Shown here: in pieces, positions 35,954 to 55,534 of the stretch
How positions within the stretch are numbered: position 1 is the first letter of the stretch
Layout of the letters: each line of letters starts with the position of its first letter
Origin: a phage
Sequence record: OZ346151.1
Length of the DNA: 64,000 nucleotides
Direction: 5' to 3' (one strand)
Position numbers and translations under genes: made by a program
The notes under the pieces: generated by a model
Told to the model about the DNA's origin: nothing
Databases searched by the model: none
Seen by the model: the letters and a program-made list of their open reading frames with translations, nothing else

Positions 35954-36765
35954 CATTGTGGCTTCGTGCAGTGATGCACGTCGAAAACCTCTTTAATTGA
36001 CGGGAAGGCTAAGTTGACTTTTACACCTAAACATGGTAAAAGCTCAATATGCTAATCCGCAGCGAAGACTAAAGGGGTGTAGTTAAAATGGCTAGATCAG
36101 TTGAGTATCACGGATATACCGTGTTTGATGATGGAACAATACCTTTATCGAAACGTGATCATACAACAATGTTTTGTTTTGATAATGGTCGAGGTTACCT
36201 TTGCGTAACCATGTTCATCGAGGGGAAGCAGTGCACAAAAGGTGTCCACCACTTGGTTGCTGAATGCTTTGTATCAAACCCTGATCCTGAAAGGCTCACA
36301 TGGGTGAACCATAAGGACGGAAACAAATACAACAATGCATACTGGAACCTTGAATGGACCACCCCTGGTGGAAATATCAAACACGCTTATGATAATGACC
36401 TCAGAGTAAGGCCAGTCGGTGAGTATAATGCCAACGCTGTACTGACCGAGGATGAGGTAACGGAGATTTGCGAACTGTTACAAAGTGGTTTACGACAATG
36501 CGAGATTAGGGATCTTGGGTATCCTTATGAGACGGTCAGAGCCATAAAGCAAAGAAGACAGTGGAAACATATCTCTAAAAACTACACCTGGTAGTAACGT
36601 TCAGAGACTATCGAAAGCATAGCGCCAACATAAATTGGTGCGAAGAAGCGAGTAGAGTAGACCAGCAAGTGCGGTCGAAATGGGAGGTGCCTTGGTAACA
36701 AGGTAGTGAGATAGTCCGATCCATACAGGAAACTGTATGGCTGTGCACGTAATGGTGCGGGGTAG
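35948..36765 (+). mobile_element. group I self-splicing intron (boundaries approximate) carrying an HNH homing endonuclease ORF
   Basis: Core elements present: P-like AATTGACGGGAAGG (about 35997), Q AATCCGCAGC (about 36053), R GTTCAGAGACTAT (about 36597), S GAGATAGTCC (about 36708); ORF sits between Q and R; downstream exon has no start codon. Confidence 0.65.
36088..36594 (+). CDS. HNH homing endonuclease (intron-encoded)
   Basis: HNH motif HHLVAECF...VNHKDGNKYNNAYWNLEWTT typical of phage intron HNH_3 endonucleases; own RBS. Confidence 0.75.
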   Translation: MARSVEYHGYTVFDDGTIPLSKRDHTTMFCFDNGRGYLCVTMFIEGKQCTKGVHHLVAECFVSNPDPERLTWVNHKDGNKYNNAYWNLEWTTPGGNIKHAYDNDLRVRPVGEYNANAVLTEDEVTEICELLQSGLRQCEIRDLGYPYETVRAIKQRRQWKHISKNYTW

Positions 36766-43721: not shown

Positions 43722-43784
43722 AAGATTGACATCTGAAAACTGCAGTGTATAATATATGCATAAACTAACAGAGAGTGATGTATT

Positions 43785-43976
43785 ATGGTAATTTTTAACC
43801 GGGATGGTATCATAGTTAGACAGCACCCGTTCCTTGAATACTATCAAATTGAGCAATGGTGCTACGGGGATTGCAGTCACTCCTATGGGCAAAGTTGGGG
43901 ATATCGTACAGTTTTTGAATCCACAGACCTTGACAAAGTAAAACAGAAAGTTTTAGAACTTCTTAACAACAAGTGA
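43785..43976 (+). CDS. hypothetical protein (63 aa)
   Basis: ATG start; small ORF. Confidence 0.35.
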   Translation: MVIFNRDGIIVRQHPFLEYYQIEQWCYGDCSHSYGQSWGYRTVFESTDLDKVKQKVLELLNNK

Positions 43977-43986
43977 GTATCGTGCC

Positions 43987-44776: not shown

Positions 44777-45102
44777 CAGAGATCATCATTTCAACTGCAG
44801 GGTATGTATTCCTGACAATCATTGCACTGGCTATTTTGGTGACAGTGTATGGGTTTGTTATCCTTCCTATCCTTGAGACATTTAGTTTGTGTCGGTGTTG
44901 GAGAAAAGCTTACGGTCCACAACCATGGAAGGACTGGCCCCACCTGGTGCGCTTAGCGTTCTCTTATGCTTACGATCACTCCAGTAGTGCATGCATAACC
45001 GGATACCACGCCCACAACTGGAGCTGGGAAGGGTTGAGGAAATGGAATGTTACAAAGACCATACCTCTGCGCATGTACAAACCTAAAAACAAAGACAACT
45101 GA
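44773..45102 (+). CDS. membrane protein (109 aa)
   Basis: GGGGAGG RBS; N-terminal hydrophobic helix IISTAGYVFLTIIALAILVTVYGFVILPIL. Confidence 0.45.
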   Translation: MTEIIISTAGYVFLTIIALAILVTVYGFVILPILETFSLCRCWRKAYGPQPWKDWPHLVRLAFSYAYDHSSSACITGYHAHNWSWEGLRKWNVTKTIPLRMYKPKNKDN

Positions 45103-45410
45103 TACTTGAAAATTCCTGGCATATCAAGTATAAGGGGGATTTCTAAAATGGATTTCCTCCTTTTGATATTTCACCGGGCTGGATATTTTAAAATTCTTAG
45201 AAAATCAGAAAATGGATCGAAAACTAAAATGGATTTTTCAGAGTAGGCGCGACAAGCTGAATAACTCATCCTATCGTTTGCACCATATTCCAGGCCACCA
45301 TTATAGATTTCCCACACATGCTAACCTCTCCCTACTAGAACTTCCTCCACTTACCCTTGACCTTCTATGGTAACAATCTAACCGCTATCTTGAAGTTGCG
45401 GTGCAGCTTT

Positions 45411-45600
45411 CCAGGTACTCGATCTACTTTTCATTTCAGGGCTTGGATTTTCTGAAAATTTTTCTCGATAAATTTCTCAGTACTCGATCTGTTTTTCGTT
45501 TTCTGAATCGGATTTTCTGGAAATCGTTCCGGCTCTCAACCTGAAATTTTTGGGGACGAAATCGATTTTTCGTTTTCAGAAATGGATTTTTAAAATTTCT
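45411..45600. repeat. iteron-like imperfect tandem direct repeats (about 64-bp unit, 2 full copies plus a partial one)
   Basis: CAGGTACTCGATCTACTTTTCATTTCAGG...GGATTTTCTGAAAAT recurs as CAGTACTCGATCTGTTTTTCGTTTTCTG...GGATTTTCTGGAAAT, then a partial CGATTTTTCGTTTTCAG...GGATTTTTAAAAT. Confidence 0.5.
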
Positions 45601-45705
45601 ATATGGGAATATTTTAGTGGATACTGTTTTATAGGAAATTGTTACGGAGGGTAATTAGCATGCTAATTAAATTTATTAAATGCGAGGAGTTCTCATTTAG
45701 AATTT

Positions 45706-45930
45706 TGAATGATAATCATTCTCGTTTGCAGAATAACGGGCAGGCCCGGTGATTGTCTCCCGGCCCCTGTTGCCCCGGCTTGTTATTATAGTATCACACA
45801 GGACAAAGAAAGCAAGGACTTTTTGCATAAATTTTTAAATGATAATGATAACCGTTCTCATTTTATGCAGCGCCCATCCCCGGTGGTTGTCTCCCCCGTC
45901 ACCGGTGCCTGCCGTCCTTTCGATATGTAT
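45706..45930. repeat. pair of about 85-bp imperfect direct repeats in non-coding DNA
   Basis: GATAATCATTCTCGTTTGCAG...CCCGGTGATTGTCTCCCGGCCCC recurs about 130 bp downstream as GATAACCGTTCTCATTTTATGCAG...CCCGGTGGTTGTCTCCCCCGTC. Confidence 0.4.
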
Positions 45931-46286
45931 ATTGTGCCACCTGGCGGGGCCGCTGTCAACACTTTTCAAAAAATTTTTCTAACCTGGTGCGCTAACCGTT
46001 GCAACCTGGCGGGGCCAGCCTGGCAGGACCTAACTGACCAGGTAGGGGAGAATGAAGGCTTGTAAACCTGGTGGGCCTATGCTACAGGATAGGTAACAAT
46101 TGAAGAGGAGGTACAAAAATGATATGATCCCCCTGGAAAATGTAGCTATTAATGACTCTGAGGCTATCGCCCTGGTTGAAAAGGCTATGGCGGGAGCGTT
46201 GGAACATAAAGAAGAGTACGAAAATGGTGGTTAACCTGGCGGGGGCGGCAGGTGGATTCTATCATAAAAATAATTTAAAATAGTAG

Positions 46287-46314
46287 TTGACAACAAGGTT
46301 AATCATGGTATTAT
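46287..46314 (+). promoter_or_regulatory. sigma70-like promoter (TTGACA-16-TATTAT)
   Basis: Consensus -35 with good -10, upstream of the 46365 gene. Confidence 0.5.
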
Positions 46315-46364
46315 TACCCTACAAGGTGAACAACACCGCACTAACCAGTAAAGAGGATAAATTT

Positions 46365-46562
46365 ATGAACGCATACGGGATCAAAGTACGTCGCAACACT
46401 CGCCAGGTGGTCACCAATCAAGTGATTTGCCGGGTGGATGTAACCATCAACAACGGGCAAGGCCTTTATAAATTTCGTCGCGGTCATAGCTATACCCTGC
46501 AACAGCTTAATCGTTGCGCCCTGACAAAAGGTCAGATCAACCACTGGTTTAATAAAAAATAA
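46365..46562 (+). CDS. small basic hypothetical protein (about 65 aa)
   Basis: ATG after AGAGGATAAA; first of a run of small rightward genes. Confidence 0.45.
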   Translation: MNAYGIKVRRNTRQVVTNQVICRVDVTINNGQGLYKFRRGHSYTLQQLNRCALTKGQINHWFNKK

Positions 46563-46565
46563 GTA

Positions 46566-46594
46566 TTGACATACAGTCAGACACCAAATACACT
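46566..46594 (+). promoter_or_regulatory. sigma70-like promoter (TTGACA-17-TACACT)
   Basis: Consensus -35 and TAnnnT -10 upstream of the 46627 gene. Confidence 0.45.
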
Positions 46595-46626
46595 AAAAGC
46601 ACAAAAGACACTAAGAGGATAAAATC

Positions 46627-46812
46627 ATGAAAACCACTACCTTTAATTTTGATAATGCAGACTTTTCTTTTTCTGATGTCAAGAACTGCCGCCGTGATCG
46701 TGGATTTTACAAGGCTTATAATCTGGTGGGCCTGGACGATGACAATAATTTGCACGAAGTAGCTGAGATCCAGCTTGACAGATTGGACGGGAAAGTACTA
46801 AAAACTTATTGA
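46627..46812 (+). CDS. hypothetical protein (61 aa)
   Basis: AAGAGGATAAAATC then ATG. Confidence 0.45.
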   Translation: MKTTTFNFDNADFSFSDVKNCRRDRGFYKAYNLVGLDDDNNLHEVAEIQLDRLDGKVLKTY

Positions 46813-46814
46813 GT

Positions 46815-46860
46815 TTATTTTTAGATGGCCTTGACACCAGGGCCATCAATAAAGTAAACT
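46815..46860 (+). promoter_or_regulatory. 46-bp palindrome-containing promoter element, copy 1
   Basis: TTATTTTTAGATGGCCTTGACACCAGGGCCATCAATAAAGTAAACT; TTGACA sits in the loop of a GATGGCC/GGCCATC inverted repeat. Confidence 0.5.
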
Positions 46861-47012
46861 AACCACAGTTGAGCGGAAAAGGAGGCTTAAAGATGAGCAC
46901 TACACGCCAGCACACAAAGGTAACCATCATCGTTTGCATCATTGGGTACATCCTGGCGCAAATGTTGATGGGTAGCGCCAACGGTGTCGCAAAATTTTTC
47001 TTAAACTTTTAA

Positions 47013-47040
47013 TTGACAAGCTAACTTAAATCGATATAAT
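47013..47040 (+). promoter_or_regulatory. sigma70 promoter (TTGACA-16-TATAAT)
   Basis: Perfect consensus hexamers upstream of the 47092 gene. Confidence 0.55.
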
Positions 47041-47091
47041 AAGCACATAAACGGGAAAACTTCCCAGAACACACAAAAGGAGAAAAACACC

Positions 47092-47433
47092 ATGACTACT
47101 ATGACCGCCTCAGAAAAAGCTATGCAGATCGCTGAACTGAAAAAACAGATCGCAGACCTTGAGAATAAGATCGATAACTTTGAAATCGACGAGGACAAGT
47201 ACGACGAAAACTATGATGAATGGTTAGACGAGATCTACGGCGAAATTATGATCGGAAACATTTCTTTTCTTCCGTCGCGTATCCTCAAGGAGCTAGATCC
47301 TATCGCTTACCGCTGCGGATTTAGCGACTACATCGACAGCCTGGATATTGAGGACGATGAAGAATACCAGGAATTACAGACAGAGTTAGAAGAAGCAAAA
47401 GAAGAGCTTGCGGAGCTGGAAGAAAACGAGTAA
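47092..47433 (+). CDS. highly acidic coiled-coil protein (113 aa)
   Basis: AAAGGAGAAAAACACC then ATG; E/D-rich heptad-like sequence. Confidence 0.5.
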   Translation: MTTMTASEKAMQIAELKKQIADLENKIDNFEIDEDKYDENYDEWLDEIYGEIMIGNISFLPSRILKELDPIAYRCGFSDYIDSLDIEDDEEYQELQTELEEAKEELAELEENE

Positions 47434-47435
47434 GC

Positions 47436-47481
47436 TTATTTTTAGATGGCCTTGACACCAGGGCCATCAATAAAGTAAACT
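47436..47481 (+). promoter_or_regulatory. 46-bp palindrome-containing promoter element, copy 2 (identical to copy 1)
   Basis: Exact repeat of the 46815 element immediately after the stop of the preceding gene. Confidence 0.5.
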
Positions 47482-47522
47482 TTATACTGTTAACACTGAA
47501 CTAATGCATAGGAGTTAAAACC

Positions 47523-47768
47523 ATGGCAGCACTAATCACCAAATATTATGCCCCTACCAACACCAAAAGCGCCCGTATCATGGTAAAAGGCTTCGGACGT
47601 AAAAAGGTGTACACCTGGGATTATGCCTTAGACACGGAAGACAACTACACCAACGCAATGACCGATTTTATTAATGAACTAAATAAGCAGATCTTGACAA
47701 GTTATAAAGTGACCGATATTGCTTATATAGGTGAAGGCGGGATCTGTTTTGTAGGCATTGTGAAATAG
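47523..47768 (+). CDS. hypothetical protein (81 aa)
   Basis: TAGGAGTTAAAACC then ATG (same 20-nt RBS/start context as the 51767 gene). Confidence 0.45.
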   Translation: MAALITKYYAPTNTKSARIMVKGFGRKKVYTWDYALDTEDNYTNAMTDFINELNKQILTSYKVTDIAYIGEGGICFVGIVK

Positions 47769-47815
47769 TTATTTTTTCGGTGGTCCTGGTTGCAGGGCCA
47801 TCTATAAAGATAATT
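47768..47815 (+). promoter_or_regulatory. diverged variant of the palindromic promoter element
   Basis: GGTCCTGGTTGCAGGGCCATCTATAAAGATAAT: same architecture with GTTGCA in place of TTGACA. Confidence 0.35.
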
Positions 47816-47842
47816 TATTAACACCATGAAAGGAGAAAGTAC

Positions 47843-48196
47843 ATGATCAGCGGGGCAAGTTTTATTATTGGCGCTATTGCTACGGCTTTAATTGTAAATA
47901 AGATCCAGGATAAAAAGGAAAGAGGAAGTACCGCCCTTGCAGAATATCCATTTTGGGCATTCAACGATAACGAAGATTATATTATAAAGTATAAAAATAA
48001 AGAAGGTGACCAAGTAACACCGCGACCGATCCCGGCTTACAAAATGCAGGAAACACTATACCGCCTGGAGGCGGGTGGCGCAAAAATTGTAGACTTTTGG
48101 GGATACGACCACACAGATCAGGAAGTTATAAAGCGCCGTATCCGGGCTATTCAGGCCAATATTGAAGTTAGCAAGGGGGGAATATATGAAAATTAA
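47843..48196 (+). CDS. membrane-anchored hypothetical protein (117 aa)
   Basis: AAAGGAGAAAG RBS; N-terminal hydrophobic helix ISGASFIIGAIATALIV. Confidence 0.45.
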   Translation: MISGASFIIGAIATALIVNKIQDKKERGSTALAEYPFWAFNDNEDYIIKYKNKEGDQVTPRPIPAYKMQETLYRLEAGGAKIVDFWGYDHTDQEVIKRRIRAIQANIEVSKGGIYEN

Positions 48197-48383
48197 TTTC
48201 GAGAAAATTGTAAAGCGCCCTCATGATTCCGAAGAGCTGCCAGAACGCCGCCAGCGTAACAATAAACTGAATAAGCCAAAAAGGTTTGGGAAGATCTGGC
48301 GTAATCATTATGATCGTAAATTGCCCGGCCTACTTTTGGAACGTGAACGACAGGCAGAACGATACCGCCATAAAGACAAATAA
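48186..48383 (+). CDS. small highly basic protein (about 65 aa)
   Basis: ATG after AAGGGGGG; Arg/Lys-rich. Confidence 0.4.
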   Translation: MKINFEKIVKRPHDSEELPERRQRNNKLNKPKRFGKIWRNHYDRKLPGLLLERERQAERYRHKDK

Positions 48384-48391
48384 CAACCAAC

Positions 48392-48420
48392 GCCCCGCCA
48401 TTGTGCGGGGCTTTTTATTT
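48392..48420 (+). terminator. rho-independent terminator
   Basis: GCCCCGC-cattgt-GCGGGGC hairpin followed by TTTTTATTT. Confidence 0.65.
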
Positions 48421-48540
48421 CTATCCTACGAATAGCGCCCCTGGTTGGCCCTGTAAGCGCCAAAAAGGCCCCCACCTATGCAATCGCCCCTTTAACCTGA
48501 AAACATCGCCCAGGGCCGTTTCATGGCGTTAAAAATATCA

Positions 48541-48568
48541 TTGACATCGTCAACAGGTTAGCTATACT
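48541..48568 (+). promoter_or_regulatory. sigma70-like promoter (TTGACA-16-TATACT)
   Basis: Near-consensus hexamers upstream of the 48601 gene. Confidence 0.5.
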
Positions 48569-48600
48569 AACCACATCAAAGAGAGAAAGGAGTAAACGCC

Positions 48601-48861
48601 ATGCGTAAATTAAAAAATTTTGATAAAGTTGATGTTATCCTGAATAATTTTTACTACTGCAACAACAAGGCTATTTGGTGGCGTGATAGTTCCACCGATA
48701 AAGTCAGGGCGCGCTTTCTTCAGGGGCACTGGCAAGGCCGCCCAGTGATTAAAATCATGGGGCAATCGGTAGCGTTTAAAAATTGCCGCCGTGTTGATGA
48801 CGTTGAGGAGATTTTAAACATTTTGCGCCACAATAATTTAAAAAATAGTGTTGACAAGTAA
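48601..48861 (+). CDS. hypothetical protein (86 aa)
   Basis: AAAGGAGTAAACGCC then ATG. Confidence 0.45.
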   Translation: MRKLKNFDKVDVILNNFYYCNNKAIWWRDSSTDKVRARFLQGHWQGRPVIKIMGQSVAFKNCRRVDDVEEILNILRHNNLKNSVDK

Positions 48862-48878
48862 GCCTCAATAAGTATACT
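48851..48878 (+). promoter_or_regulatory. sigma70-like promoter (TTGACA-16-TATACT) overlapping the 3' end of the preceding gene
   Basis: Same hexamer pair as the 48541 promoter. Confidence 0.45.
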
Positions 48879-48935
48879 TAAACACACAGGCGGGAAAACT
48901 TCCCGCCACTAACAAAGAAAATAGGAGAAAATATC

Positions 48936-49559
48936 ATGACCACCGTTAACATTACCGCAGGTTACAATTTATCTTTCGACGTGCTGACCGACGAACAAAA
49001 AGAAAAAGCCGTTGAAATGGTCCGCGAAAGAGAAGAACACAGCGGGGATAACTTTTTTGCAGAAAGTGTAATTGAATACTATAAAGAATATGTTTTTCCA
49101 GAGTATGGCCTTGAAGATACCGAAGTACATTGGTCAGGCTTTTGGTGCCAGGGTGACGGCGCGTCAATCAGTGCTGAAAACGTGGATTTAGAAAAATTTT
49201 TACGTAAAGTAAAGGCCCTGACCAAGTTCCGATCAATTCGTCACTTGTTCGGCACAATGCACGATGGCGAGTTATCAGCCAGTGTTGAACGCGACAAGTA
49301 CAGCCATTACAGCCATGAAAACACTGTAAGCGGGTACATTGATACCACTTGGCTAGATCTGACCGCCAAACAAGAAAACAAAGTGGAAGACCTGGAAGAA
49401 CTGATCACCGAGACGGTACGGGAGCTATCCCGCAAGGTTTACGTAGACCTGGAGGAGGCCTATCTAGAACAGTTCACCGCAGAAAACCTGATCGGCCTTA
49501 TCGAGGCCAATGATTGGCGGTTTGATGTCGATGAATATGGTGAGATGACTTTTTCATAA
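48936..49559 (+). CDS. acidic hypothetical protein (207 aa)
   Basis: AATAGGAGAAAATATC then ATG; no confident family assignment. Confidence 0.5.
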   Translation: MTTVNITAGYNLSFDVLTDEQKEKAVEMVREREEHSGDNFFAESVIEYYKEYVFPEYGLEDTEVHWSGFWCQGDGASISAENVDLEKFLRKVKALTKFRSIRHLFGTMHDGELSASVERDKYSHYSHENTVSGYIDTTWLDLTAKQENKVEDLEELITETVRELSRKVYVDLEEAYLEQFTAENLIGLIEANDWRFDVDEYGEMTFS

Positions 49560-49567
49560 ATAAAGTG

Positions 49568-49595
49568 TTGCAATAACCTAAAAACCTGCTATATT
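49568..49595 (+). promoter_or_regulatory. sigma70-like promoter (TTGCAA-16-TATATT)
   Basis: Hexamers read directly upstream of the 49650 gene. Confidence 0.4.
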
Positions 49596-49649
49596 AAAAC
49601 TCAAGGGGGCAAGACGTTTGCCCCAACACAAAACAAAGAGGATAACATC

Positions 49650-50030
49650 ATGAAAAACACTACCAAGGCTATTGACACCGTTATGTTTAACCTGGTTACA
49701 TTCCGTGAAGATATGAAAGATCTTCCTCGTGAAACAGTGTGCGACCATATCGAAAACTATCGCAAACTAATCAAAGAGTTGCCTTTAAAACGTGATCAAT
49801 ATGCGGCTAACGCCATGCTTAATGCCATGATCAAAAAGATGATCCAGTGTGATTTAACCCTGGCCTATGATTATGCAGGCGGTCGTTTTGCAGTATACAA
49901 TCAGCCCGTGCCCGGTATGAGCACCACCGAAGAATTGCACGCGCTCAATCTAAAACAAGACGTGTGGGATAGTATGCCTCGCGTGGTGGTATGGGTAGAA
50001 AGCGGAAAGATTTACGGCGATAATTTTTAA
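49650..50030 (+). CDS. hypothetical protein (126 aa)
   Basis: AAGAGGATAACATC then ATG. Confidence 0.45.
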   Translation: MKNTTKAIDTVMFNLVTFREDMKDLPRETVCDHIENYRKLIKELPLKRDQYAANAMLNAMIKKMIQCDLTLAYDYAGGRFAVYNQPVPGMSTTEELHALNLKQDVWDSMPRVVVWVESGKIYGDNF

Positions 50031-50037
50031 TCAGGTA

Positions 50038-50067
50038 GCAGGCGGCATATTTGCCGCCTTATTGTTA
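50038..50067 (+). terminator. rho-independent terminator
   Basis: GGCGGCA-tattt-TGCCGCC hairpin followed by TTATTGTT. Confidence 0.55.
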
Positions 50068-50094
50068 ATCAGAACTGTAAAAGAGGTACATAGA

Positions 50095-50466
50095 ATGGAA
50101 TTTATTATTTTGGCTGTATTGGTTGCCTTGTTTAACGCCTGGATCGCTGGCAAGATGGGAAGATCCGCCTTTTTATGGTTTATTATATCTATTTTCCTGG
50201 GGGTGGTTGCAACTATTGTATTGGTTATCCTTGCAATTGTTGACAAGGGGAATAATAGAAAGGGTAAAGTATTTTCAGACCTGTACGACGCTCAAACGTT
50301 TGTCAACGCCTATTATAGTGATCTTCCAGTCTCCCTACGTTGCAGCCTTGCACAACAGGTTTTCGATGAAGCTAAAACCAGAGATCACGCCCATGAGATT
50401 TGTTTAACTGAGGCGGATCGCCTATTTGAGAGGAATAGAAAATATGTGGACCAGCCGTTTAAATAA
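50095..50466 (+). CDS. membrane protein with two predicted TM helices (about 123 aa)
   Basis: ATG after AAAGAGG; hydrophobic segments FIILAVLVALFNAWIAG and FLWFIISIFLGVVATIVLVILAIV. Confidence 0.45.
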   Translation: MEFIILAVLVALFNAWIAGKMGRSAFLWFIISIFLGVVATIVLVILAIVDKGNNRKGKVFSDLYDAQTFVNAYYSDLPVSLRCSLAQQVFDEAKTRDHAHEICLTEADRLFERNRKYVDQPFK

Positions 50467-50576
50467 TGCCACGTTAATTAACCCCTTTAGTAAAGATTTG
50501 AAGCCAGCCGCCTGGCGGGATGGATTCAATAACGAACGCTTTATTTTCAGGCCTGATCTTGAGGAATTTTATAACA

Positions 50577-50804
50577 ATGGATCGAACAACAGCGGAGATA
50601 ATTTTTCTTGTGGTGTGTGTCGTGATAGGACTCCTGGGGGCCATTGTAGATCGCGTCACTACTACCAGAAGGAAAGGGGAGACGATGACAACCAAGGATA
50701 AGCCCCGCACCGATAAGGTGCGCCGTGTTATGGTATGGCTTGAGATCATCGCCCTTGAAATATTGTTAGGCGTAGGGATGTATTTTATCTCTGTAAGTAA
50801 CTGA
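50577..50804 (+). CDS. small membrane protein with two TM helices (about 75 aa)
   Basis: ATG after GAGGAA; hydrophobic N- and C-terminal segments; preferred over the overlapping alternative frame 50426..50701. Confidence 0.4.
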   Translation: MDRTTAEIIFLVVCVVIGLLGAIVDRVTTTRRKGETMTTKDKPRTDKVRRVMVWLEIIALEILLGVGMYFISVSN

Positions 50805-50947
50805 TAACGGCCCCCGATCCCTGGGGGGCCTAACTTTTTTCAAAAAATTTTTCTTCCGGGGTGTTGCAATCCGGTCCTGAATATGGATAATAACAATCAA
50901 CGGGGAAACATCCCCACCAACACAAAAACCAGAAAGGAGAAACAAAA

Positions 50948-51148
50948 ATGAGCAACAATATCCGCGTTATTAACTTCAAAAAAGAAGAAAAAATTGCCGT
51001 GCTGATTGACGGTCAAGAAATCTTCAAGGGCGACTATGAAGATCATCAAACGGCGATTAGTATCACTCGCGTGATTGGTTACCATAATTTTTACCCCCAA
51101 GGCGCTGAGGCGGCGGTTAAACGAATCAAAGAGATTGTAGGCCTGTAA
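50948..51148 (+). CDS. hypothetical protein (66 aa)
   Basis: GAAAGGAGAAACAAAA then ATG. Confidence 0.45.
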   Translation: MSNNIRVINFKKEEKIAVLIDGQEIFKGDYEDHQTAISITRVIGYHNFYPQGAEAAVKRIKEIVGL

Positions 51149-51151
51149 AAT

Positions 51152-51197
51152 TTATTTTTAGATGGCCTTGACTCTAGGGCCATCAATAAAGTAAATT
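51152..51197 (+). promoter_or_regulatory. 46-bp palindrome-containing promoter element, copy 3
   Basis: TTTATTTTTAGATGGCCTTGACTCTAGGGCCATCAATAAAGTAAAT; a few substitutions relative to copies 1 and 2. Confidence 0.5.
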
Positions 51198-51241
51198 TAA
51201 ACCCTGTTAAAATACCACGCAGTTAACAAGGAGTAATGATC

Positions 51242-51541
51242 ATGTTTATCCAGGCTAATAATCTTTATTTCTTTGATGGTCAGATCGTAGATGGTGTGGA
51301 AGTGGAGATCACTGGGTGCCCTGGTGGTCAGGCTATGACTTTTCGGAATAATGCCTTTGATGATTCTCATATCGTTATGAGAATGGAAGTTACAAAGCTG
51401 GACGACAAGAAAACGCTCATTGACTATTCCGTGAAAGATCATCCAGACTACCACATGATCTATGGTGATTTGTGCATTGTTGACCGTGACAAGGTGGGCG
51501 GCATTGTGATCGCTATTGTGAACGATGTTTTCTCTGTATAG
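51242..51541 (+). CDS. hypothetical protein (about 99 aa)
   Basis: ATG after AAGGAG. Confidence 0.45.
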   Translation: MFIQANNLYFFDGQIVDGVEVEITGCPGGQAMTFRNNAFDDSHIVMRMEVTKLDDKKTLIDYSVKDHPDYHMIYGDLCIVDRDKVGGIVIAIVNDVFSV

Positions 51542-51766
51542 TTCCGGCAAATGATGCAAAATAAGGCCCCTAGCAGGGCCTACAGCGATATAATCACATA
51601 AAGGCCATGCAACCGCATGGCCTTTATTATTTTGGCGTTACAGCGGCCCCAAGGCGCTTAAAAATTTTTTAAAGAAGTACTTGCATCAAGCCCTACAATA
51701 TGGATAATAGGACGTGTCAGGGGGGGGAGGCCCCAATCATTAACCGGATAGATAGGAGTTAAAACC

Positions 51767-52051
51767 ATGGCTATTGTTACCGCTGGCGATGTAGTAGAAA
51801 TGGAAGCAAAATACTTAAAAGCGGGTATGCATATCCTACGCAACGATCTTGAACTGGTCCTGACAATGGTTGACTATAACCCAGGGCAAGATTATCCAAG
51901 TGTTGACTACTTTTTTGAGTATGTTGATGAAGAGTTGAAAGAGGATGAGGCCTATTGCGGTGAGTTCTGCAACTTCTTTTGTCCTGATGAGGTTGTAAAG
52001 GTTATCTATCAACCTGGCGTAGCTTTCCCGCTGCACGCTATCAATAAATAA
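51767..52051 (+). CDS. hypothetical acidic protein (94 aa)
   Basis: TAGGAGTTAAAACC then ATG. Confidence 0.45.
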   Translation: MAIVTAGDVVEMEAKYLKAGMHILRNDLELVLTMVDYNPGQDYPSVDYFFEYVDEELKEDEAYCGEFCNFFCPDEVVKVIYQPGVAFPLHAINK

Positions 52052-52055
52052 ACCT

Positions 52056-52080
52056 GGCGGGGGCCTTTTCGGCCCCCGCC
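52056..52080. terminator. strong GC hairpin, terminator candidate (weak T-tract on + strand)
   Basis: GGCGGGGGCC-tttt-GGCCCCCGCC perfect 10-bp stem; shares the AACCTGGCGGGG motif found four times in 45.9-46.3 kb. Confidence 0.35.
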
Positions 52081-52114
52081 TGAAATTATGAAAAATAAAA
52101 AGAGGCAAACTATC

Positions 52115-52348
52115 ATGATGGAACAAATTAAACGCGCTGAGGCTATTAATGGCAATGTAATCTATTTTGTCAGCAAAAACGAAAAAGGCGTACCCTATGC
52201 GGCGGTAATAGTACAGCCTGACGGCGATTATTGGTGCACTGTGTACGGCGCTTATTCTTTTGGGCGTCCAGTGCATGATAAAATTTTGAAAGTAGCGAAC
52301 CCTACCGGGAAAAATATTACAGCAGAAAAATTTTTTGAAAAAAGTTGA
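52115..52348 (+). CDS. hypothetical protein (about 77 aa)
   Basis: ATG after AAAGAGG. Confidence 0.45.
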   Translation: MMEQIKRAEAINGNVIYFVSKNEKGVPYAAVIVQPDGDYWCTVYGAYSFGRPVHDKILKVANPTGKNITAEKFFEKS

Positions 52349-52424
52349 CATGACCATATAAAACTGTAGTATATAAATCAAAGGGGGCAACAAGCCCCAC
52401 CAACCACAAAGAGGATAAAAAATC

Positions 52425-52604
52425 ATGGCTATTATTGCAAAGACCGAGATCGTAGGCTTAGATTCTATTCTCCTCGCATATGAGGAAGCTATAGAAATGT
52501 ATGTGGTTTCCTATGGTGAGTATATCCGTGAATATGAATCTATTGATCTAGCTTTTGAATGTTATATTCGCCAGGTTAATAAAGCGTACGATGATTATCG
52601 TTAA
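52425..52604 (+). CDS. small hypothetical protein (59 aa, below the ORF-track cutoff)
   Basis: AAGAGGATAAAAAATC then ATG; fits the spacing of the surrounding small-gene array; coordinates hand-counted. Confidence 0.35.
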   Translation: MAIIAKTEIVGLDSILLAYEEAIEMYVVSYGEYIREYESIDLAFECYIRQVNKAYDDYR

Positions 52605-52695
52605 AATAGTTTGACAACAAACAACCATCTAACAAAGCATAATACATAAGGTGGTAGAATGATCCGCCACCCGGAACAAAGAAGAGGTAAACACC

Positions 52696-52941
52696 ATGAA
52701 AAGCAATAAAGGTTATAACGGTTACAAAAACAAAACTCATTGGAATGTAAGCCTTTGGATTAATAACGATGAGTCATTGTACCGGTTGGCCCAAGGATTT
52801 ATTAACGCTAATGCTAATCGTAATGATGCGGCGCGGGATATGATGCTTTTTCTGGAGCTAACCGGACAAGATAAGACCCCGGACGGCTTCAAGTACAGCA
52901 CTACGGCGATCCGTGCCGCGATGGTTGGAATGAAACACTAA
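52696..52941 (+). CDS. hypothetical protein (81 aa)
   Basis: AGAAGAGGTAAACACC then ATG. Confidence 0.45.
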   Translation: MKSNKGYNGYKNKTHWNVSLWINNDESLYRLAQGFINANANRNDAARDMMLFLELTGQDKTPDGFKYSTTAIRAAMVGMKH

Positions 52942-53259
52942 AAGCACATAGCCGCCAGATCTCAGAATTTACGTACGCTCACCAGTCTATAGCCTGCTAA
53001 GTATTTATTCCAACCATAGAATAACGGAATAGTCAATACCTGCATAAAATAATTATTCGTGTAAACTGCATAACATAAATCGGCTAGGATGTCAACATTT
53101 TTCGTAAACAGCTCGAAATTATAACGGTGAGTTATAATAAACAGAGAAATCTTTAGTCGTCTAATGTTTACTGTACATTACTATACTGACTGGAATCATT
53201 AGATGACTAAGAGAAAGATAAGAAATCATTAACAATGCAATTGTTTTATTCGTAACAAT

Positions 53260-53454
53260 AAGGCAACTATGCAAACGGATGGCATGGCGCGACGGAGTCG
53301 CGACATAATATAAAAGCAGTAACCATCACCCCCGTGATAGTTTGTCTGCAAACTATTAATCAGATCATAGTTGCCTTGTATTTAGTTAATCATGACATAA
53401 CAAGCAAGGCAACTATAGATCTGCTAATAGTTGCCCTGCTTTTATATTATGTCA
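53260..53454. repeat. nested inverted repeats forming a large imperfect palindrome
   Basis: 18-bp perfect inverted repeat GACATAATATAAAAGCAG at 53302-53319 and 53437-53454 enclosing the 12-bp inverted repeat ATAGTTGCCTTG / CAAGGCAACTAT (53367-53378, 53405-53416); the AAGGCAACTAT motif occurs 4 times in alternating orientation. Confidence 0.55.
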
Positions 53455-54984
53455 TAGATTATTAGCCTGTTAATTGTTAGTCAGTCAAATCAACAACGTT
53501 ATCATTTCAGTCTTTATTGTTGTTGATCGTTATTGTTATCATGCAAACGAATGGCATGGCTTATCATTTTTGAGTAAACAATCTATACGTGAACAGTGAG
53601 GCATGCAATAGTAAGGGCGGGAATAATGAGAGTGTAAACTGTCAAGGGTAATGTCAATTATATCAATCGTGTCAGTTATGTCACCATTATGTCAGCAGAG
53701 TTTTTCTCCTCTTTGTCAAGTGCTGCATGCCCACACAAATAGTAAGAAATATAATTGTTATGTGCGTAAACAGTAACTCATGTTATCAATCCCTGTATGT
53801 ATCGCCAGTGGTGCGCATAATGGGTATTATGTTAAATTGCCCGTAATGATAATGGTTCTCACAATGATAGGTATTCTCATTCCCCCACACAAAATAGATT
53901 GCAAATGTTGTGCCACTATGTGAACGGCCTCACCTATTAATTTGCCTCACTGCCTCGATATTTGAGAATTATCATAAGAATGAGAAGTATTCCCATTTCG
54001 TCCGCCTGGCAGCACTCCAGTCGCTACGGCTCAGAACAGGGCAGAATTGTGTCCATTCAGATATTTCTGTCTGGCTCTTCAGGTCTGTGTGGGAAAAGTC
54101 CACCTCTCTGGCGGGGCATGGGGTCATGACGGGAAAATTGCAGGTCAATTAAAAAATTTACGTGGTGTATGAAGCGCTCTTCAGGTAAGGCATGTATTAT
54201 GGGATGAAACCCTCTTCAGGCAATGATATTTGTGGGTGTGATATTTGCTGGAAAGCCAGATATGACGGGACTCCCGGCGGGGCAGGGGTAGTACAGACAG
54301 GGGAAATATGGAGGATGTGGTTAGGTGAATTGATCAGACAGGTAGAGTATGGAATATGTTACAGGTATGTTAAATAGGGCGGCTGAATATCTGTAGGATT
54401 TGTGTGTAAAATCAAAGACTTAAGTGGTGTTGTGGTATTTTCTATAAATAATTCAAGTTTAATAGGTAATATTTGTCTCTATTCGCTTTGTGTGGTAAAC
54501 AGATTCAGATGAGATTGGTTTACAAGCGTATACATAATATACAAATTAAAGATACAAGAAACCCCCCTCCCCCTTCGGCTACCATTCACCTTTTCCTCTG
54601 ACTGGTACTTAAACACTTATTCAGACTCTTCAGGTTATCACCCATATATCATATGGCAGTGACTGGTGTCCTCCGGCCCCTCTTTCGTCACCCGTCCGCT
54701 TCGCCATGCTAATGCCATAGCCAATGGTTCGGTTGTTCACCCTGTTCACTCAGGTGTATCTCCATACCCCTTCAAAACGAAGAGAACAGAAAACCCGAAT
54801 TACTCGGTAAAAGAAAAGAGAAGAACTTAATTTTATCAGGATAGGCAAGAATGTCAAGGCATGACTGCTCACTAAACAAGCAAACAGTCATGTGTGGGAG
54901 GTAAGTGATTGTGGTGGTAGGAAATTTAGTTGAAAGATGTGTTATAGGTGCTTCCAGCACTTTAGCCGGGCAGCTAATTGTGTG

Positions 54985-55200
54985 TCAGTCCAGCGGTTCA
55001 TCCTCTACTTCACTGAAATCAATGTTCATGGTCTCTTCCCAACCATCGATCTCAGCACAAGAGTGGAGTTCTTTAGGGTTTACTCCTAAAGCCTCAGCAA
55101 CAGAGTCTATATTTAACACCTCTGGCAGGTATGATTCATCAAATTCAAGGTAAATCAGGCCACGAGTGTTGTCAGCTCCACCAAATATTTCTATCTTCAT
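54985..55200 (-). CDS. small acidic protein (71 aa)
   Basis: ATG start; last gene of the leftward small-gene array. Confidence 0.4.
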   Translation of the reverse strand: MKIEIFGGADNTRGLIYLEFDESYLPEVLNIDSVAEALGVNPKELHSCAEIDGWEETMNIDFSEVEDEPLD

Positions 55201-55321
55201 AAAATCTCCTCTGGAAATGAGAGTGTGAACAGGGTTTTATACGTCCCAATGCACAGGAATTATGCACGTTTTCCTCTTCAGGCCATGCTTTAGCATGAGG
55301 AACCTGTGTGGGCTCGGTGCT

Positions 55322-55534
55322 TCATAGTCTACCACCTCTGAACTCTTCGTGCTCAGGCATAATAGAGAACCAGATATCTACGATGTCCTCCCACGTCAGG
55401 TCATCAGCCTCAGGATCTGTCTGGGACGAAGATGAAGAGTCCTCAGAATCTAAGTTTTCCTCTTTAACTGGCTCATCCAAGGGACATATGGTCACTCCTT
55501 CGGATGTCTCTTCAGATGCATGTGTGTTGATCAT
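55322..55534 (-). CDS. small acidic Ser-rich protein (70 aa)
   Basis: ATG start overlapping the stop of an upstream small TM ORF. Confidence 0.4.
   Translation of the reverse strand: MINTHASEETSEGVTICPLDEPVKEENLDSEDSSSSSQTDPEADDLTWEDIVDIWFSIMPEHEEFRGGRL

Follow-up and report, generated by a model that had tools for sequence, protein, structure and literature searches.

A variable array of small genes with host-type promoters, and a conserved 49-nt hairpin that doubles as a promoter, in an rV5-like phage

Genes of the array and their genomic context

The 64,000-nt stretch of phage DNA analysed here (the window; OZ346151.1) comes from an rV5-like Vequintavirus, and its region 46287–52941 shares 93–97% nucleotide identity with more than 100 Vequintavirus genomes. 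Tail genes occupy 1–14 kb and a replication module 21–36 kb, followed on the same strand by small genes; the array comes after the replication genes, as the last part of a 32-kb unit, and forms part of the rV5 unit '10-1-238-164' (genes gp196 to gp174). Since small genes and strong + strand promoters are already present from ~36 kb, the left boundary at 46287 is arbitrary. The region matches rV5 gp174–gp196, with genes, promoters (P174, P185, P186, P192, P194, P195 and P195A) and terminators (t177, t181 and t184) mapping one-to-one, and for the type phage rV5 the majority of these promoters and terminators had been predicted before (Kropinski et al., 2013).

We count 19 small coding sequences, all on the + strand (46365–52941), rather than the approximately 17 of an earlier note on this DNA. 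Every gene starts with ATG and has the strong Shine–Dalgarno sequence (SD) claimed there, of the AGGAG/GAGG type and 5–10 nt upstream.

46365..46562, +, g1: 65 aa, pI 11.0; rV5 gp196; phrog_7119; pN/pS 0.14
46627..46812, +, g2: 61-aa remnant, N-terminus of Murica gp102 fused to the last 15 codons of gp103
46893..47012, +, g3: 39 aa, one transmembrane (TM) segment; rV5 gp193; phrog_16391
47092..47433, +, g4: 113 aa, pI 4.1, 36 D/E, coiled-coil N-terminus; rV5 gp192; phrog_9294
47523..47768, +, g5: 81 aa; rV5 gp191; phrog_3199
47843..48196, +, g6: 117 aa, N-terminal TM segment; rV5 gp190; phrog_12734
48186..48383, +, g7: 65 aa, pI 10.6, T7 gene 1.1-like; rV5 gp189; 11-nt overlap with g6
48601..48861, +, g8: 86 aa, pI 9.9; rV5 gp186; phrog_11241
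48936..49559, +, g9: 207 aa, pI 4.5, the largest product; rV5 gp185
49650..50030, +, g10: 126 aa; rV5 gp184; phrog_7352
50095..50466, +, g11: 123 aa, two N-terminal TM helices; rV5 gp183; phrog_13090; no promoter of its own
50444..50701, +, g12: 85 aa; 23-nt overlap with g11; phrog_12060
50685..50804, +, g13: 39 aa, TM segment; rV5 gp181; overlaps g12; phrog_13629
50948..51148, +, g14: 66 aa; rV5 gp179; phrog_12347
51242..51541, +, g15: 99 aa, pI 4.5; phrog_7366
51767..52051, +, g16: 94 aa, pI 4.2; rV5 gp176; phrog_12610
52115..52348, +, g17: 77 aa; rV5 gp175; phrog_9227; no promoter of its own
52425..52604, +, g18: 59 aa, pI 4.2; rV5 gp174; phrog_9374
52696..52941, +, g19: 81 aa, DUF7249 (Pfam E 7.1e-13); final gene ahead of a non-coding region

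These are real genes, as judged by purifying selection (array pN/pS 0.14 against Murica and 0.10 against JLBYU08) and by membership of a PHROG family in all 19 cases. The description of the products as small membrane, acidic or basic proteins lacking enzymatic motifs agrees with our results: g3, g6, g11 and g13 carry TM segments, g4, g9, g15, g16 and g18 are acidic (pI 4.1–4.5), g1, g3, g7, g8, g13 and g19 are basic (pI 9.5–11), and no enzymatic Pfam domain was found among the 19. None has a match among known proteins of host takeover, anti-defence or defence, homology assigns a function to none (the only matches being T7 gp1.1-like, Phage_1_1 in g7 with E 2.6e-11, and DUF7249), and the products are absent from the rV5 virion mass spectrometry (MS) data. 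A PDB sequence search with g4 gave no match; g9, whose homologues occur in Vequintavirus and, at ~60% identity, on contigs of ~356–360 kb (jumbo-phage size), gave a confident structure model (pLDDT 87.5) that matched no known fold in a PDB search. The C-terminus of g12 is altered by a 1-nt indel relative to Murica and JLBYU08, the two relatives compared.

Promoters

46287..46314, +, g1 promoter: TTGACA-16-TATTAT with TG, 11/12; likely rV5 P195A
46566..46594, +, g2 promoter: TTGACA-17-TACACT, 10/12; rV5 P195; hexamers invariant
47013..47040, +, g4 promoter: TTGACA-16-TATAAT, 12/12; rV5 P192
48541..48568, +, g8 promoter: TTGACA-16-TATACT, 11/12
48851..48878, +, g9 promoter: TTGACA-16-TATACT, 11/12; rV5 P185; −35 within the end of g8
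49568..49595, +, g10 promoter: TTGCAA-16-TATATT with TG, 9/12; kept in 4 genomes
50864..50891, +, g14 promoter: TTGCAA-16-GATAAT, 9/12; conserved island in 4 genomes
51683..51710, +, g16 probable promoter: TTGCAT-16-GATAAT, read from the sequence
52345..52372, +, g18 promoter: TTGACA-16-TAGTAT, 10/12; rV5 P174
52611..52646, +, g19 possible promoter: TTGACA; −10 doubtful (AAGCAT at 18 nt or CATAAT at 21 nt)

On the + strand of 46240–52941, nine sites have at least 10 of 12 matches against 1.3 ± 1.1 expected from 500 dinucleotide shuffles, none of which reached nine, and the − strand has no such site. Eight of the nine are intergenic, although intergenic DNA makes up 24.6% of the sequence; a second promoter scan gave 39 sites (23.5 ± 5.4 expected). 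Strong TTGACA promoters precede g1, g2, g3, g4, g5, g8, g9 and g18, and weaker, conserved ones g10, g14, g15 and probably g16 and g19. The earlier statement that 'nearly every' gene has its own promoter is thus too broad, the count being 11–13 out of 19: g6 follows a promoter-dead cassette (see below), g7, g12 and g13 each overlap the gene before them, and g11 and g17 follow hairpins that have no promoter.

The hexamers are kept relative to rV5 and relatives, while spacers and flanks diverge. The g1 −35 is retained in Murica and MiataMamis with a divergent spacer, the g8 promoter has hexamers identical to those of rV5 P186 around a different spacer (MiataMamis keeps the hexamers only), and the g16 promoter area is a conserved island, 'CTTGCATCA...ACAATATGGATAATA', in 4 genomes.

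Terminators, leader hairpins and the 49-nt element

48392..48421, +, intrinsic terminator after g7: 7 GC pairs, then TTTTTATTT
50040..50067, +, terminator after g10: rV5 t184; T tail weak
50809..50840, +, terminator after g13: rV5 t181
51598..51637, +, terminator after g15: rV5 t177; 13-pair stem, then TTATTATTTT
52056..52080, +, GC hairpin after g16: no + strand T tract; loop inverted relative to relatives
47053..47065, +, g4 5'-UTR hairpin CGGGAAAACTTCCCG, then a CA-rich leader: z −2.5; invariant in 4 genomes
48889..48907, +, g9 5'-UTR hairpin GGCGGGAAAACTTCCCGCC: −14.6 kcal/mol, z −5.2
49606..49624, +, g10 5'-UTR hairpin GGGGCAAGACGTTTGCCCC: −12.5 kcal/mol, z −3.3
50902..50915, +, g14 5'-UTR hairpin: GGGG/CCCC stem kept, loop differing among genomes
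52384..52398, +, g18 5'-UTR hairpin GGGGCAACAAGCCCC: −10.5 kcal/mol

The 5'-UTR hairpins begin at about +5 to +7 of the predicted transcripts, several with z of only −1.9 to −2.7. Distinct from these is a two-tier hairpin of 49 nt, present in four copies (a–d), three of which carry the promoter of the next gene.

46812..46860, +, cassette a: TTGACA at 46831, −10 TAAACT ending at 46860; predicted to drive g3; −24.0 kcal/mol, z −8.1
47433..47481, +, cassette b: −35 TTGACA at 47452; predicted to drive g5; −19.8 kcal/mol, z −5.7
47767..47815, +, cassette c: fold kept, −22.0 kcal/mol; TTGACA box lost; upstream of g6
51149..51197, +, cassette d: TTGACT-18-TAAATT; predicted to drive g15; −19.6 kcal/mol, z −5.7

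The four folds (−19.6 to −24.0 kcal/mol, z −5.7 to −8.1) are 3.5–14 kcal/mol more stable on the sense than on the antisense strand, which for copy c reaches only −8.1 kcal/mol. Pairing is kept at 98.7% over 28 copies from 7 genomes, with four compensatory pairs (slid controls 35–55%); because these genomes are closely related and the copies paralogous, the independent covariation events are few. Promoter and fold are separable: copy c has the fold without the promoter, and rV5 P194, the counterpart of copy a, the promoter without the hairpin arms.

That the hairpins are ordinary rho-independent terminators in which the TTGACA is incidental we regard as very improbable. They do begin at the stop codon that ends the preceding gene, the Murica annotation calls two of them (c and d) 'terminator', and the similar PeSL stem-loops (below) lowered read-through in reporter assays (PMC2839356); however, neither strand has a U tract after the stem (its 3' flank reads AAUAAAGUAAACU, and the T run is on the 5' side), a terminator scan calls none of the four, three copies keep TTGAC(A/T) and a −10 spaced at 18 nt across the 7 genomes, and P194 is listed as a promoter in rV5 although it lacks the hairpin.

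Gene gain, loss and exchange

Relative to Murica, four indels leave ~4 kb of array genes missing from the OZ346151.1 phage, among them the 685-nt deletion with GAGATCC microhomology that created g2 (a match to positions 1–50 of phrog_7028 and to the end of phrog_13245) and the loss of gp116, which follows the g15 counterpart. MiataMamis has four additional genes between g7 and g8. The g19 slot is replaced in MiataMamis and CM1 and its gene is not evident in rV5, whose gene table has no 81-aa counterpart; the g19 coding sequence occurs in Phapecoctavirus and Asteriusvirus at 83–92% nucleotide identity. Single ORFs have moved to or from Phapecoctavirus, Asteriusvirus and Krischvirus, and comparison with JLBYU08 gives an identity mosaic. 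This variation indicates that the array genes are individually dispensable, and for this reason 'accessory' fits them better than 'takeover machinery'.

The 49-nt cassettes resemble the PeSL cassettes of T4-like phages, which lie between ORFans of a variable region and combine a strong sigma-70 promoter, an AT-rich upstream tract and polyG/polyC stem-loops that overlap the −35 or sit just downstream of the −10 (PMC2839356). It is conceivable, if doubtful, that the promoter/hairpin repeats are likewise primarily linkers for DNA recombination, through which ORFan cassettes are inserted, deleted and exchanged, perhaps via mini-circles, the expression signals being a by-product. Besides the fit to that description, several homology boundaries would suit such a role: a patch divergent from JLBYU08 (48571–48767) begins 3 nt past the g8 −10 and ends ahead of the g9 promoter, homology to MiataMamis picks up again at the −35 ahead of g8 and, at the replaced g19, breaks off 2 nt past the TTGACA, and single-ORF homology with RB49-type phages ends at the SD/ATG. 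Yet three of the four Murica indels have breakpoints within genes or non-coding DNA, with 6–7-nt microhomology, and not at cassettes; a second patch divergent from JLBYU08 (50.7–52.2 kb) ignores cassette boundaries; the 49-nt element is limited to four copies at positions fixed in all 7 genomes; and the changes in it keep the sense-strand RNA paired by way of G.U, which DNA recombination would not select. The conserved hexamers may simply be functional islands instead of crossover points.

Expression timing

Judged by promoter type, the array is probably early. Promoter type alone gives no timing here, since in rV5 sigma-70-like promoters occur across the whole genome, before late genes too, and its authors doubt polymerase reprogramming (PMC3606486); a literature search found no transcriptome for any member of the Vequintavirinae. 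Expression throughout infection, or mainly in its middle or late phase, would accord with those promoters and with the annotation of the g11 counterpart in AlexBoehm as 'putative holin', but we consider it unlikely: the array shows no enrichment of TGGTAAAATA, the proposed late motif (one match with 1 mismatch, at 51205, the others lying mainly in the structural region), virion MS data for rV5 give no evidence of the products, and the equivalent region of the sister genus Certrevirus was called a 'likely early gene region' (PMC7344957). The membrane-protein sub-operon g11–g13 may be regulated differently, since it has no sigma-70 promoter and follows a terminator.

Discussion

What the sequence comparisons show directly are the gene models and the selection on them, the enrichment and conservation of promoters, covariation in the hairpin and differences in gene content. 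As the probable explanation we favour that the array is the distal part of the replication-side unit, a variable block of horizontally exchanged accessory genes driven by the host polymerase, with the hairpin acting at two levels. It would comprise ~13 self-contained expression units, each running from an AT-rich tract through a sigma-70 −35/−10 and often a short G/C hairpin (starting ~5–7 nt into the predicted transcript) to a CA-rich unstructured leader, a strong SD and ATG, with four intrinsic terminators and the four 49-nt hairpins, exactly at stop codons, partitioning the whole. Unmodified E. coli RNA polymerase would read these promoters. As to timing, protein roles and hairpin action, we infer that transcription may proceed from the start of infection with no phage factor needed, that the products may be non-structural accessory proteins directed at the host, host defences or rival phages, each gene being dispensable and gained, lost or swapped between phages, and that the 49-nt element may work both as DNA and as RNA. 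As DNA it would provide the next gene's promoter in three of four copies, the T-rich lower arm being UP-like, the apex of the stem holding the −35 and the 3' lower arm the −10; in RNA form, which occurs only in read-through transcripts from the upstream gene, its ~20-bp stem may end, process or stabilize the upstream message.

The earlier note had likened the array to the early host-shutoff regions of large virulent phages. Its architecture (sigma-70 promoters preceded by AT-rich tracts, strong SDs, very small ORFan products with no enzymatic motifs and one homologue of T7 gene 1.1) does resemble the early accessory regions of such phages, so that this part of the comparison survives, but a role in host shut-off or 'host takeover' is conjectural. 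A dedicated module, most of whose 19 products directly inhibit the host in the first minutes (its transcription, replication, division or nucleases), on the pattern of T7 class I, T5 pre-early and T4 immediate-early genes, seems to us unlikely. The same promoters and SDs, the very small size of the acidic, basic or membrane products, and g7 as an early-gene homologue would suit it, and host toxicity is common among early phage proteins (PMC13250531). Against it, no product is homologous to a characterized takeover protein, and the array sits past the replication genes; its free loss, truncation and replacement among near-identical E. coli phages would be unexpected for core takeover functions. 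Moreover, T7 gene 1.1 itself has, to our knowledge, no established function.

The array is, then, a well-conserved small-gene block of rV5-like E. coli phages in which many genes have their own host-type promoter. Since the block was described in 2013 for the type phage it is ordinary, with the exception of the conserved 49-nt hairpin doubling as a promoter, which is the new detail.

Genomic setting and gene content

The array at 46287–52941 is a series of short, mostly monocistronic units with host-type predicted promoters. The earlier note had seen about 17 genes there; 19 were found (g1–g19, numbered from left to right along the + strand), encoding products of 39–207 aa, and its picture of an array of small + strand genes is borne out. 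Gene boundaries follow the annotations of the related phages Murica, AlexBoehm and JLBYU08 together with rV5 Table S3. All 19 genes start with ATG and all 19 carry, 5–10 nt before the start, the strong Shine–Dalgarno (SD) site (AGGAG/GAGG) that the note had remarked on. Each falls in a PHROG family, all of 'unknown function', and pN/pS summed over the array is 0.14 against Murica and 0.10 against JLBYU08; judged by these two measures, the ORFs are real genes.

In a nucleotide search 46287–52941 matched 278 phage records, and about 100 genomes, almost all of Escherichia Vequintavirus (rV5-like myoviruses of ~135–140 kb), cover at least 80 % of it at 90–97 % identity; where 88–100 % of the query is covered, again in about 100 genomes, identity is 93–97 %, and to rV5-type genomes it is 93–95 %. 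Gene order is that of gp174–gp196 of the type phage rV5, with size and pI agreeing gene by gene (rV5 Table S3; Kropinski et al. 2013, Virol J 10:76, PMC3606486). That table gives gp174–gp196 as small and without homologues, except for gp185 (a weak 2e-05 match to a hypothetical protein) and gp189 (PF08200, Phage_1_1) (PMC3606486). The phage studied here differs from rV5 in having a truncated gp195/gp194 fusion (g2) and the gene g19 (DUF7249), and it lacks equivalents of Murica gp116 and gp121–128 (rV5 gp164–172).

Tail and structural genes occupy 1–14 kb (+) of the window and a − strand block 14–21 kb. A long + strand unit opens at ~21 kb with a replication module (PIF1-like helicase, DNA methylase, DnaB-like helicase and family-A polymerase) and consists of small genes only from ~36 kb to 52941; beyond lie an ORF-free AT-rich stretch to ~55500, past which GC skew switches sign, and a convergent − strand small-gene array. 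No tRNA genes were found in the 64-kb window. This is the published layout of rV5, in which two of four transcription units, '10-1-238-164' and '82-163', converge on a 'non-coding' box (PMC3606486). The left boundary drawn by the note at 46287 is arbitrary, since small genes are already found from ~36 kb on, with + strand promoters just as dense; spacing is tighter there, the upstream genes of Murica lying mostly 0–70 nt apart against a median of ~75 nt in the array.

The products are diverse in the way that had been read from the sequence: four have TM segments (g3, g6, g11 and g13), five have a pI of 4.1–4.5 (g4, g9, g15, g16 and g18) and six a pI of 9.5–11 (g1, g3, g7, g8, g13 and g19). Only g7 (Phage_1_1, T7 gene 1.1, E 2.6e-11) and g19 (DUF7249, E 7.1e-13) pass Pfam thresholds, both for families without assigned function, and no enzymatic domain was found by Pfam in any array product. 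PADLOC returned no defence or anti-defence homologues, g4, g9, g10 and g19 had no PDB sequence matches, and no homologue of a known inhibitor of host functions emerged from Pfam, PHROGs, PADLOC or PDB sequence and fold searches. Host shut-off, the function proposed in the note, thus gains no support from homology or data; a literature search found neither a Vequintavirinae transcriptome nor a functional screen of array genes. The expectation that the products are not virion components is upheld, in that there is no MS-supported structural protein among rV5 gp164–gp212, which is weak evidence given that only a handful of proteins are confirmed in the proteome (PMC3606486).

Homologues of the largest product, g9, occur among Vequintaviruses and, at ~60 % identity, on contigs of ~356–360 kb (jumbo-phage size); its metagenomic relatives reach as low as 26 % identity. 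Residues G58, G68, F69, Q72, G73, D74, G75, A76, H127, R162, Y169 and L172 are invariant in an 18-sequence alignment, and the AlphaFold model is confident (pLDDT 87.5, pTM 0.78). Within 50444–50804, g12 differs from both Murica and JLBYU08 by a 1-nt indel, which gives it a longer C-terminus and makes it overlap g13 further. The g13 frame also holds an alternative ORF of 75 aa with two TM segments (50577–50804), of which a PHROG matches the last 39 residues alone.

Promoters and terminators

Sites matching the sigma-70 consensus at 10 or more of 12 positions number nine on the + strand of the array, against 1.3 ± 1.1 expected from 500 dinucleotide shuffles (0/500 reached nine), and zero on the − strand. 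Eight of the nine are intergenic, although intergenic DNA makes up 24.6 % of the sequence, and over the whole window strong sites track the coding strand. The promoter enrichment claimed earlier is therefore real, but its extent, 'nearly every gene', was overstated: 11–13 of the 19 genes have a promoter of their own.

Promoter status of the array genes (+ strand) and corresponding rV5 signals (rV5 Table S4)
g1, g2, g3, g4, g5, g8, g9, g18 (8 genes): TTGACA with a good −10
g10: TTGCAA-16-TATATT
g14: TTGCAA-16-GATAAT
g15: TTGACT-18-TAAATT
g16, g19: doubtful yet conserved promoter elements
g6: behind a promoter-dead cassette
g7, g12, g13: each overlaps the preceding gene
g11, g17: behind hairpins, without a promoter
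rV5 P174, P185, P186, P192, P194, P195: the sites found at g18, g9, g8, g4, g3 and g2, respectively
rV5 P195A: likely the g1 site
rV5 t177, t181, t184: the terminators found at 51598, 50809 and 50040, respectively

Intrinsic terminators follow g7, g10, g13 and g15. In four-genome alignments the promoter hexamers stand out as islands of identity amid diverged spacers and flanks at g1, g8, g14 and g16, and rV5 P186 and P194 share their hexamers with the g8 and g3 promoters, with different spacers; such conservation supports function for the predicted promoters. A search for the late promoter motif TGGTAAAATA before g11–g13 or elsewhere in the array gave a single 1-mismatch match, at 51205; a near-match before g11 overlaps the g11 SD.

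The E. coli sigma-70 holoenzyme would be expected to read these promoters without phage factors, so that expression should begin at infection. We consider it reasonable, from the promoter sequences, to view the array as a set of early, host-polymerase-driven accessory genes, and the step from small ORFs behind sigma-70 promoters to an early region has already been taken for the subfamily (PMC7344957). In Certrevirus, also of the Vequintavirinae, sigma-70-like promoters with an UP-like A tract were described in a short-ORF 'likely early gene region' (Buttimer et al. 2020, PMC7344957). The two genera are alike in concentrating consensus sigma-70 promoters among many short hypothetical ORFs; Certrevirus, however, is a separate genus with the consensus TGTTGAC-N19-TATAAT, and the hairpin element considered below was not described there (PMC7344957).

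A 49-nt element with a promoter inside a hairpin

Four intergenic sites, which we term type A cassettes, carry copies of a 49-nt repeat, each starting where the preceding gene has its stop codon:
46812: copy a
47433: copy b
47767: copy c
51149: copy d

The predicted fold has two tiers, at −19.6 to −24.0 kcal/mol (z −5.7 to −8.1): 10 bp rich in A/U form the lower stem and 10 bp rich in G/C the upper one, with a 2x3 internal loop between them and a loop of 4 nt at the top. Three of the four copies have a −35 box, TTGAC(A/T), that straddles the border between the upper 5' arm and this top loop, with a −10 box, TAAACT/TAAATT, in the lower arm on the 3' side; on the 5' side, the T-rich lower arm occupies the position of an UP element. 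Copy c (47767) has lost its −35 box with its fold intact (−22.0 kcal/mol), and conversely rV5 P194 has kept the promoter and lacks the hairpin arms that surround the gp193 promoter here. Considering these two cases together, we conclude that promoter and hairpin are separable and separately maintained.

All six relatives examined have four copies at the same positions. In a set of 28 copies, 19 of them distinct, 98.7 % of cells are paired, against 35–55 % when partners are slid as a control. Compensatory double changes occur at four lower-stem pairs, changes in the upper stem are all one-sided and preserve G.U pairing, and the loop is the most variable part of the element. A covariance model run with filters off recovered the four known copies and no further ones in the 64-kb window, BLAST found the element only in Vequintavirus-type records, and Rfam gave nothing in the array or its flanks, either at the gathering threshold over the whole window or at E ≤ 0.1 over 45.0–55.9 kb.

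Such a hairpin might be a rho-independent terminator, and two of the copies are annotated as 'terminator' in Murica. However, the stem is followed on its 3' side by AAUAAAGUAAACU, neither strand has a T run there that could supply a U tract, and a terminator scan makes no call, so that the element is not a canonical terminator. A palindrome might also serve in duplex DNA as a protein operator or cruciform; this is disfavoured because G.U pairs are kept on the sense strand only and the sense RNA fold is 3.5–14 kcal/mol more stable than the antisense one, which points to a role in the + strand transcript. Transcription is predicted to start beyond the element, so the hairpin would be present only in read-through transcripts from the upstream gene.

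We suggest, from the fold and its position, that the hairpin may insulate neighbouring units at the RNA level, and this could occur through attenuation, through stabilisation of the 3' end by the stem, or through processing by RNase III. The geometry of an RNase III signal is predicted, namely an irregular, covariation-supported helix of ~20 bp (10 + 10 bp with a 2x3 internal loop) in an intercistronic position; this two-tier shape and placement resemble the early RNase III signals of T7 (R1.1 type). Tentatively, and as something we regard as possible rather than probable, we propose a dual use for the 49-nt element, private to Vequintaviruses: as DNA it would be a promoter and, in read-through RNA, a hairpin that is cleaved in RNase III-like fashion or in some other way ends or stabilises the upstream message.

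A second arrangement (type B cassettes) consists of a promoter, a short polyG/polyC hairpin 10–12 nt past the −10, a CA-rich leader and the SD. It is present at g4, g9, g10, g14 and g18, less clearly at g19, and at g14 the stem is constant among genomes while the loop varies. Stem-loops at the 5' terminus are established stabilisers of E. coli mRNAs. The type B hairpins may likewise protect transcript 5' ends; their predicted position, +5 to +7, is borderline.

Gene exchange and the comparison with PeSLs

Four indels separate the window from Murica:

Indels of the window relative to Murica, breakpoints inspected at the nucleotide level
46072–46232: extra ~160 nt, absent from Murica, with a 36–44-aa acidic ORF (phrog_21957) and flanking direct repeats AAACCTGGYGGG
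685-nt deletion: gp102 and gp103 reduced to the remnant g2; microhomology GAGATCC
Loss of gp116: breakpoint inside gp116
Junction 52948–52956: ~3.0 kb lost just past g19; ATAGCC microhomology

The ~160-nt module is the only examined indel bounded by a repeated motif. The ~3.0-kb deletion, which removes eight or nine small genes (Murica gp121–128, rV5 gp164–172), is confirmed by ~3.1 kb of extra spacing in MaxTheCat and rV5_ev158; along with the 0.7-kb loss at g2, this natural deletion shows the genes to be dispensable in part. Further variation is found between relatives: MiataMamis has four extra genes within the 217-nt g7–g8 gap, the g19 slot holds another gene in MiataMamis and CM1, and the rV5 gene table has no counterpart of the 81-aa product. 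Identity to JLBYU08 is mosaic (100 % for g1–g7, 93.9 % for g8, ~100 % for g9–g11 and 87–95 % for g13–g16). The divergent patch at g8 (48571–48767) starts 3 nt past the g8 −10 and ends before the g9 promoter; a second one, at 50.7–52.2 kb, disregards cassette boundaries. Additionally, the g19 CDS (52696–52941) has 83–92 % nucleotide identity to sequences in Phapecoctavirus and 121Q-like Asteriusvirus, and a CDS at 43781–43980, homologous to rV5 gp205, has ~85 % identity in RB49-type Krischviruses; all of these are unrelated large coliphages, and for both CDSs homology begins a few nucleotides before the ATG and stops at the stop codon. In agreement, homologues in RB49, phi1 and JSE have been noted for rV5 gp205, gp206, gp209 and gp210 (PMC3606486). 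Taken together, the indels, slot replacements, mosaic identity and shared CDSs mark the array as a hyperplastic accessory region in which single genes pass between large coliphages.

At 52056–52080, just past g16, the G/C hairpin is longer in the stem than in Murica, JLBYU08 and MiataMamis and its loop is inverted (TTTTC instead of GAAAAG), so that it looks as though the palindrome had been flipped.

Such regions are known in T4-like phages, where PeSLs, defined in RB49/phi1, combine a strong sigma-70 promoter, an AT-rich upstream tract and a polyG/polyC stem-loop that may overlap the −35 or −10 or sit just past the −10 (PMC2839356). Placed between ORFans in hyperplastic regions, they serve as attenuators and also mediate the formation of indels and mini-circles (PMC2839356; PMC4122927), and the cassettes occur in RB49/phi1, PST and nt-1 (Arbiol 2010, PMC2839356; Comeau 2014, PMC4122927). 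Here, too, sigma-70 promoters with AT-rich upstream tracts stand between variable-region ORFs, some of them common to RB49-type phages, with a stem-loop by the promoter (overlapping the −35 in the 49-nt element, 10–12 nt past the −10 in type B), so that, as sequences, both cassette types fit the structural description of PeSLs. Against this, the present phage belongs to another subfamily, and the 49-nt element is a long two-tier structure in four fixed copies, in contrast to dozens of short GGGG/CCCC stems.

Recombination of the PeSL type could then have shaped the gene content of the array, and some gene-content boundaries do fall at a promoter or SD, with the g8 patch, the g7–g8 insertion and the g19 slot bounded at promoter hexamers. 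Most of the examined indels, however, are microhomology deletions away from the elements: three of the four Murica breakpoints (GAGATCC, ATAGCC and the one inside gp116) lie off the cassettes, which argues against PeSL recombination as the cause of these differences. Some boundaries sit at hexamers, most indels lie elsewhere and the second divergent patch ignores cassettes; a role for recombination is only partly borne out. The array thus appears to work like a PeSL-rich hyperplastic region, and we do not extend the likeness to recombination or mini-circles.

The class I early region of T7 (genes 0.3–1.3) offers a second comparison, with small non-essential genes that are read by E. coli polymerase and separated by RNase III sites, and the array holds a homologue of T7 gene 1.1 (g7); the promoters here are predicted ones. 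T7, on the other hand, uses three tandem left-end promoters to make one long transcript and does not have one promoter per gene, and RNase III cleavage in the present phage is an inference. More generally, phage accessory regions have been described as fast-changing, non-essential clusters of exchanged small genes between conserved genes (Silas et al. 2023, 10.1101/2023.04.06.535777), and the array is alike as an exchanged small-gene cluster; 'Vequinta' and 'rV5' are absent from the main text of that study.

Neighbouring regions and database records

Several features outside the array were observed:
35938–36739 (+): group I intron-like RNA (Rfam RF00028, full-length model match, E 3e-8; 39.1 bits, below the gathering score of 50), directly following the family-A DNA polymerase ORF (33524–35953)
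36088–36594: HNH-like ORF within that RNA
45100–46280: ORF-poor repeat region just upstream of the array, with four copies of the motif AAATGGATTT; phage isim has a repeat_region annotated under the match (position approximate)
45405–45590: periodic repeats of 65–74 nt
About 45941, 46006, 46236, and again 52048: motif AACCTGGCGGGG
52942–55500: ORF-free stretch between the two convergent small-gene arrays (the rV5 'non-coding' box), GC 0.38, 94–95 % conserved in relatives
53302–53319 and 53436–53453: perfect 18-nt inverted repeat
53651–53694: tandem repeat of ATGTCAATT, 4.7 copies
53684–53657 and 54857–54830: strong − strand sigma-70-like sites

From the model match and the ORF, it is probable that an intron encoding a homing endonuclease splits the polymerase gene. 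Rfam gave no match in 52942–55500 even at E ≤ 0.1; this stretch could be an origin or a source of unannotated RNAs. About 20 GenBank records (MG0656xx, 'Campylobacter phage A135, A13b, A142, C14' and others) are 92–100 % identical to this E. coli Vequintavirus over the regions searched, and are probably mislabelled or contaminant assemblies.

Implications

Because the array and its signals have already been described for rV5, their finding here is a rediscovery, and with genes, promoters and terminators published it adds little in itself; the covariation-supported 49-nt element with its promoter inside a hairpin is a modest new detail. The practical value of the array is that of a catalogue of 19 conserved, individually dispensable small proteins from a phage genus in therapeutic use, with activity against E. 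coli O157. Some genes of the region are exchanged with jumbo, phAPEC8-like and RB49-like coliphages, and it would be reasonable to enter these proteins in screens for host interaction or anti-defence activity.

The hairpin-embedded promoter is a small, testable case of one sequence selected both as DNA and as RNA, and extends the PeSL idea past T4-like phages. If the dual-use reading is true, the element would insulate neighbouring accessory genes from each other, and an unrelated phage subfamily would have its own covariation-supported equivalent of the T4-type PeSLs, distinct in structure; this would suggest that placing promoters in hairpin cassettes is a general way to organise plug-in gene arrays.
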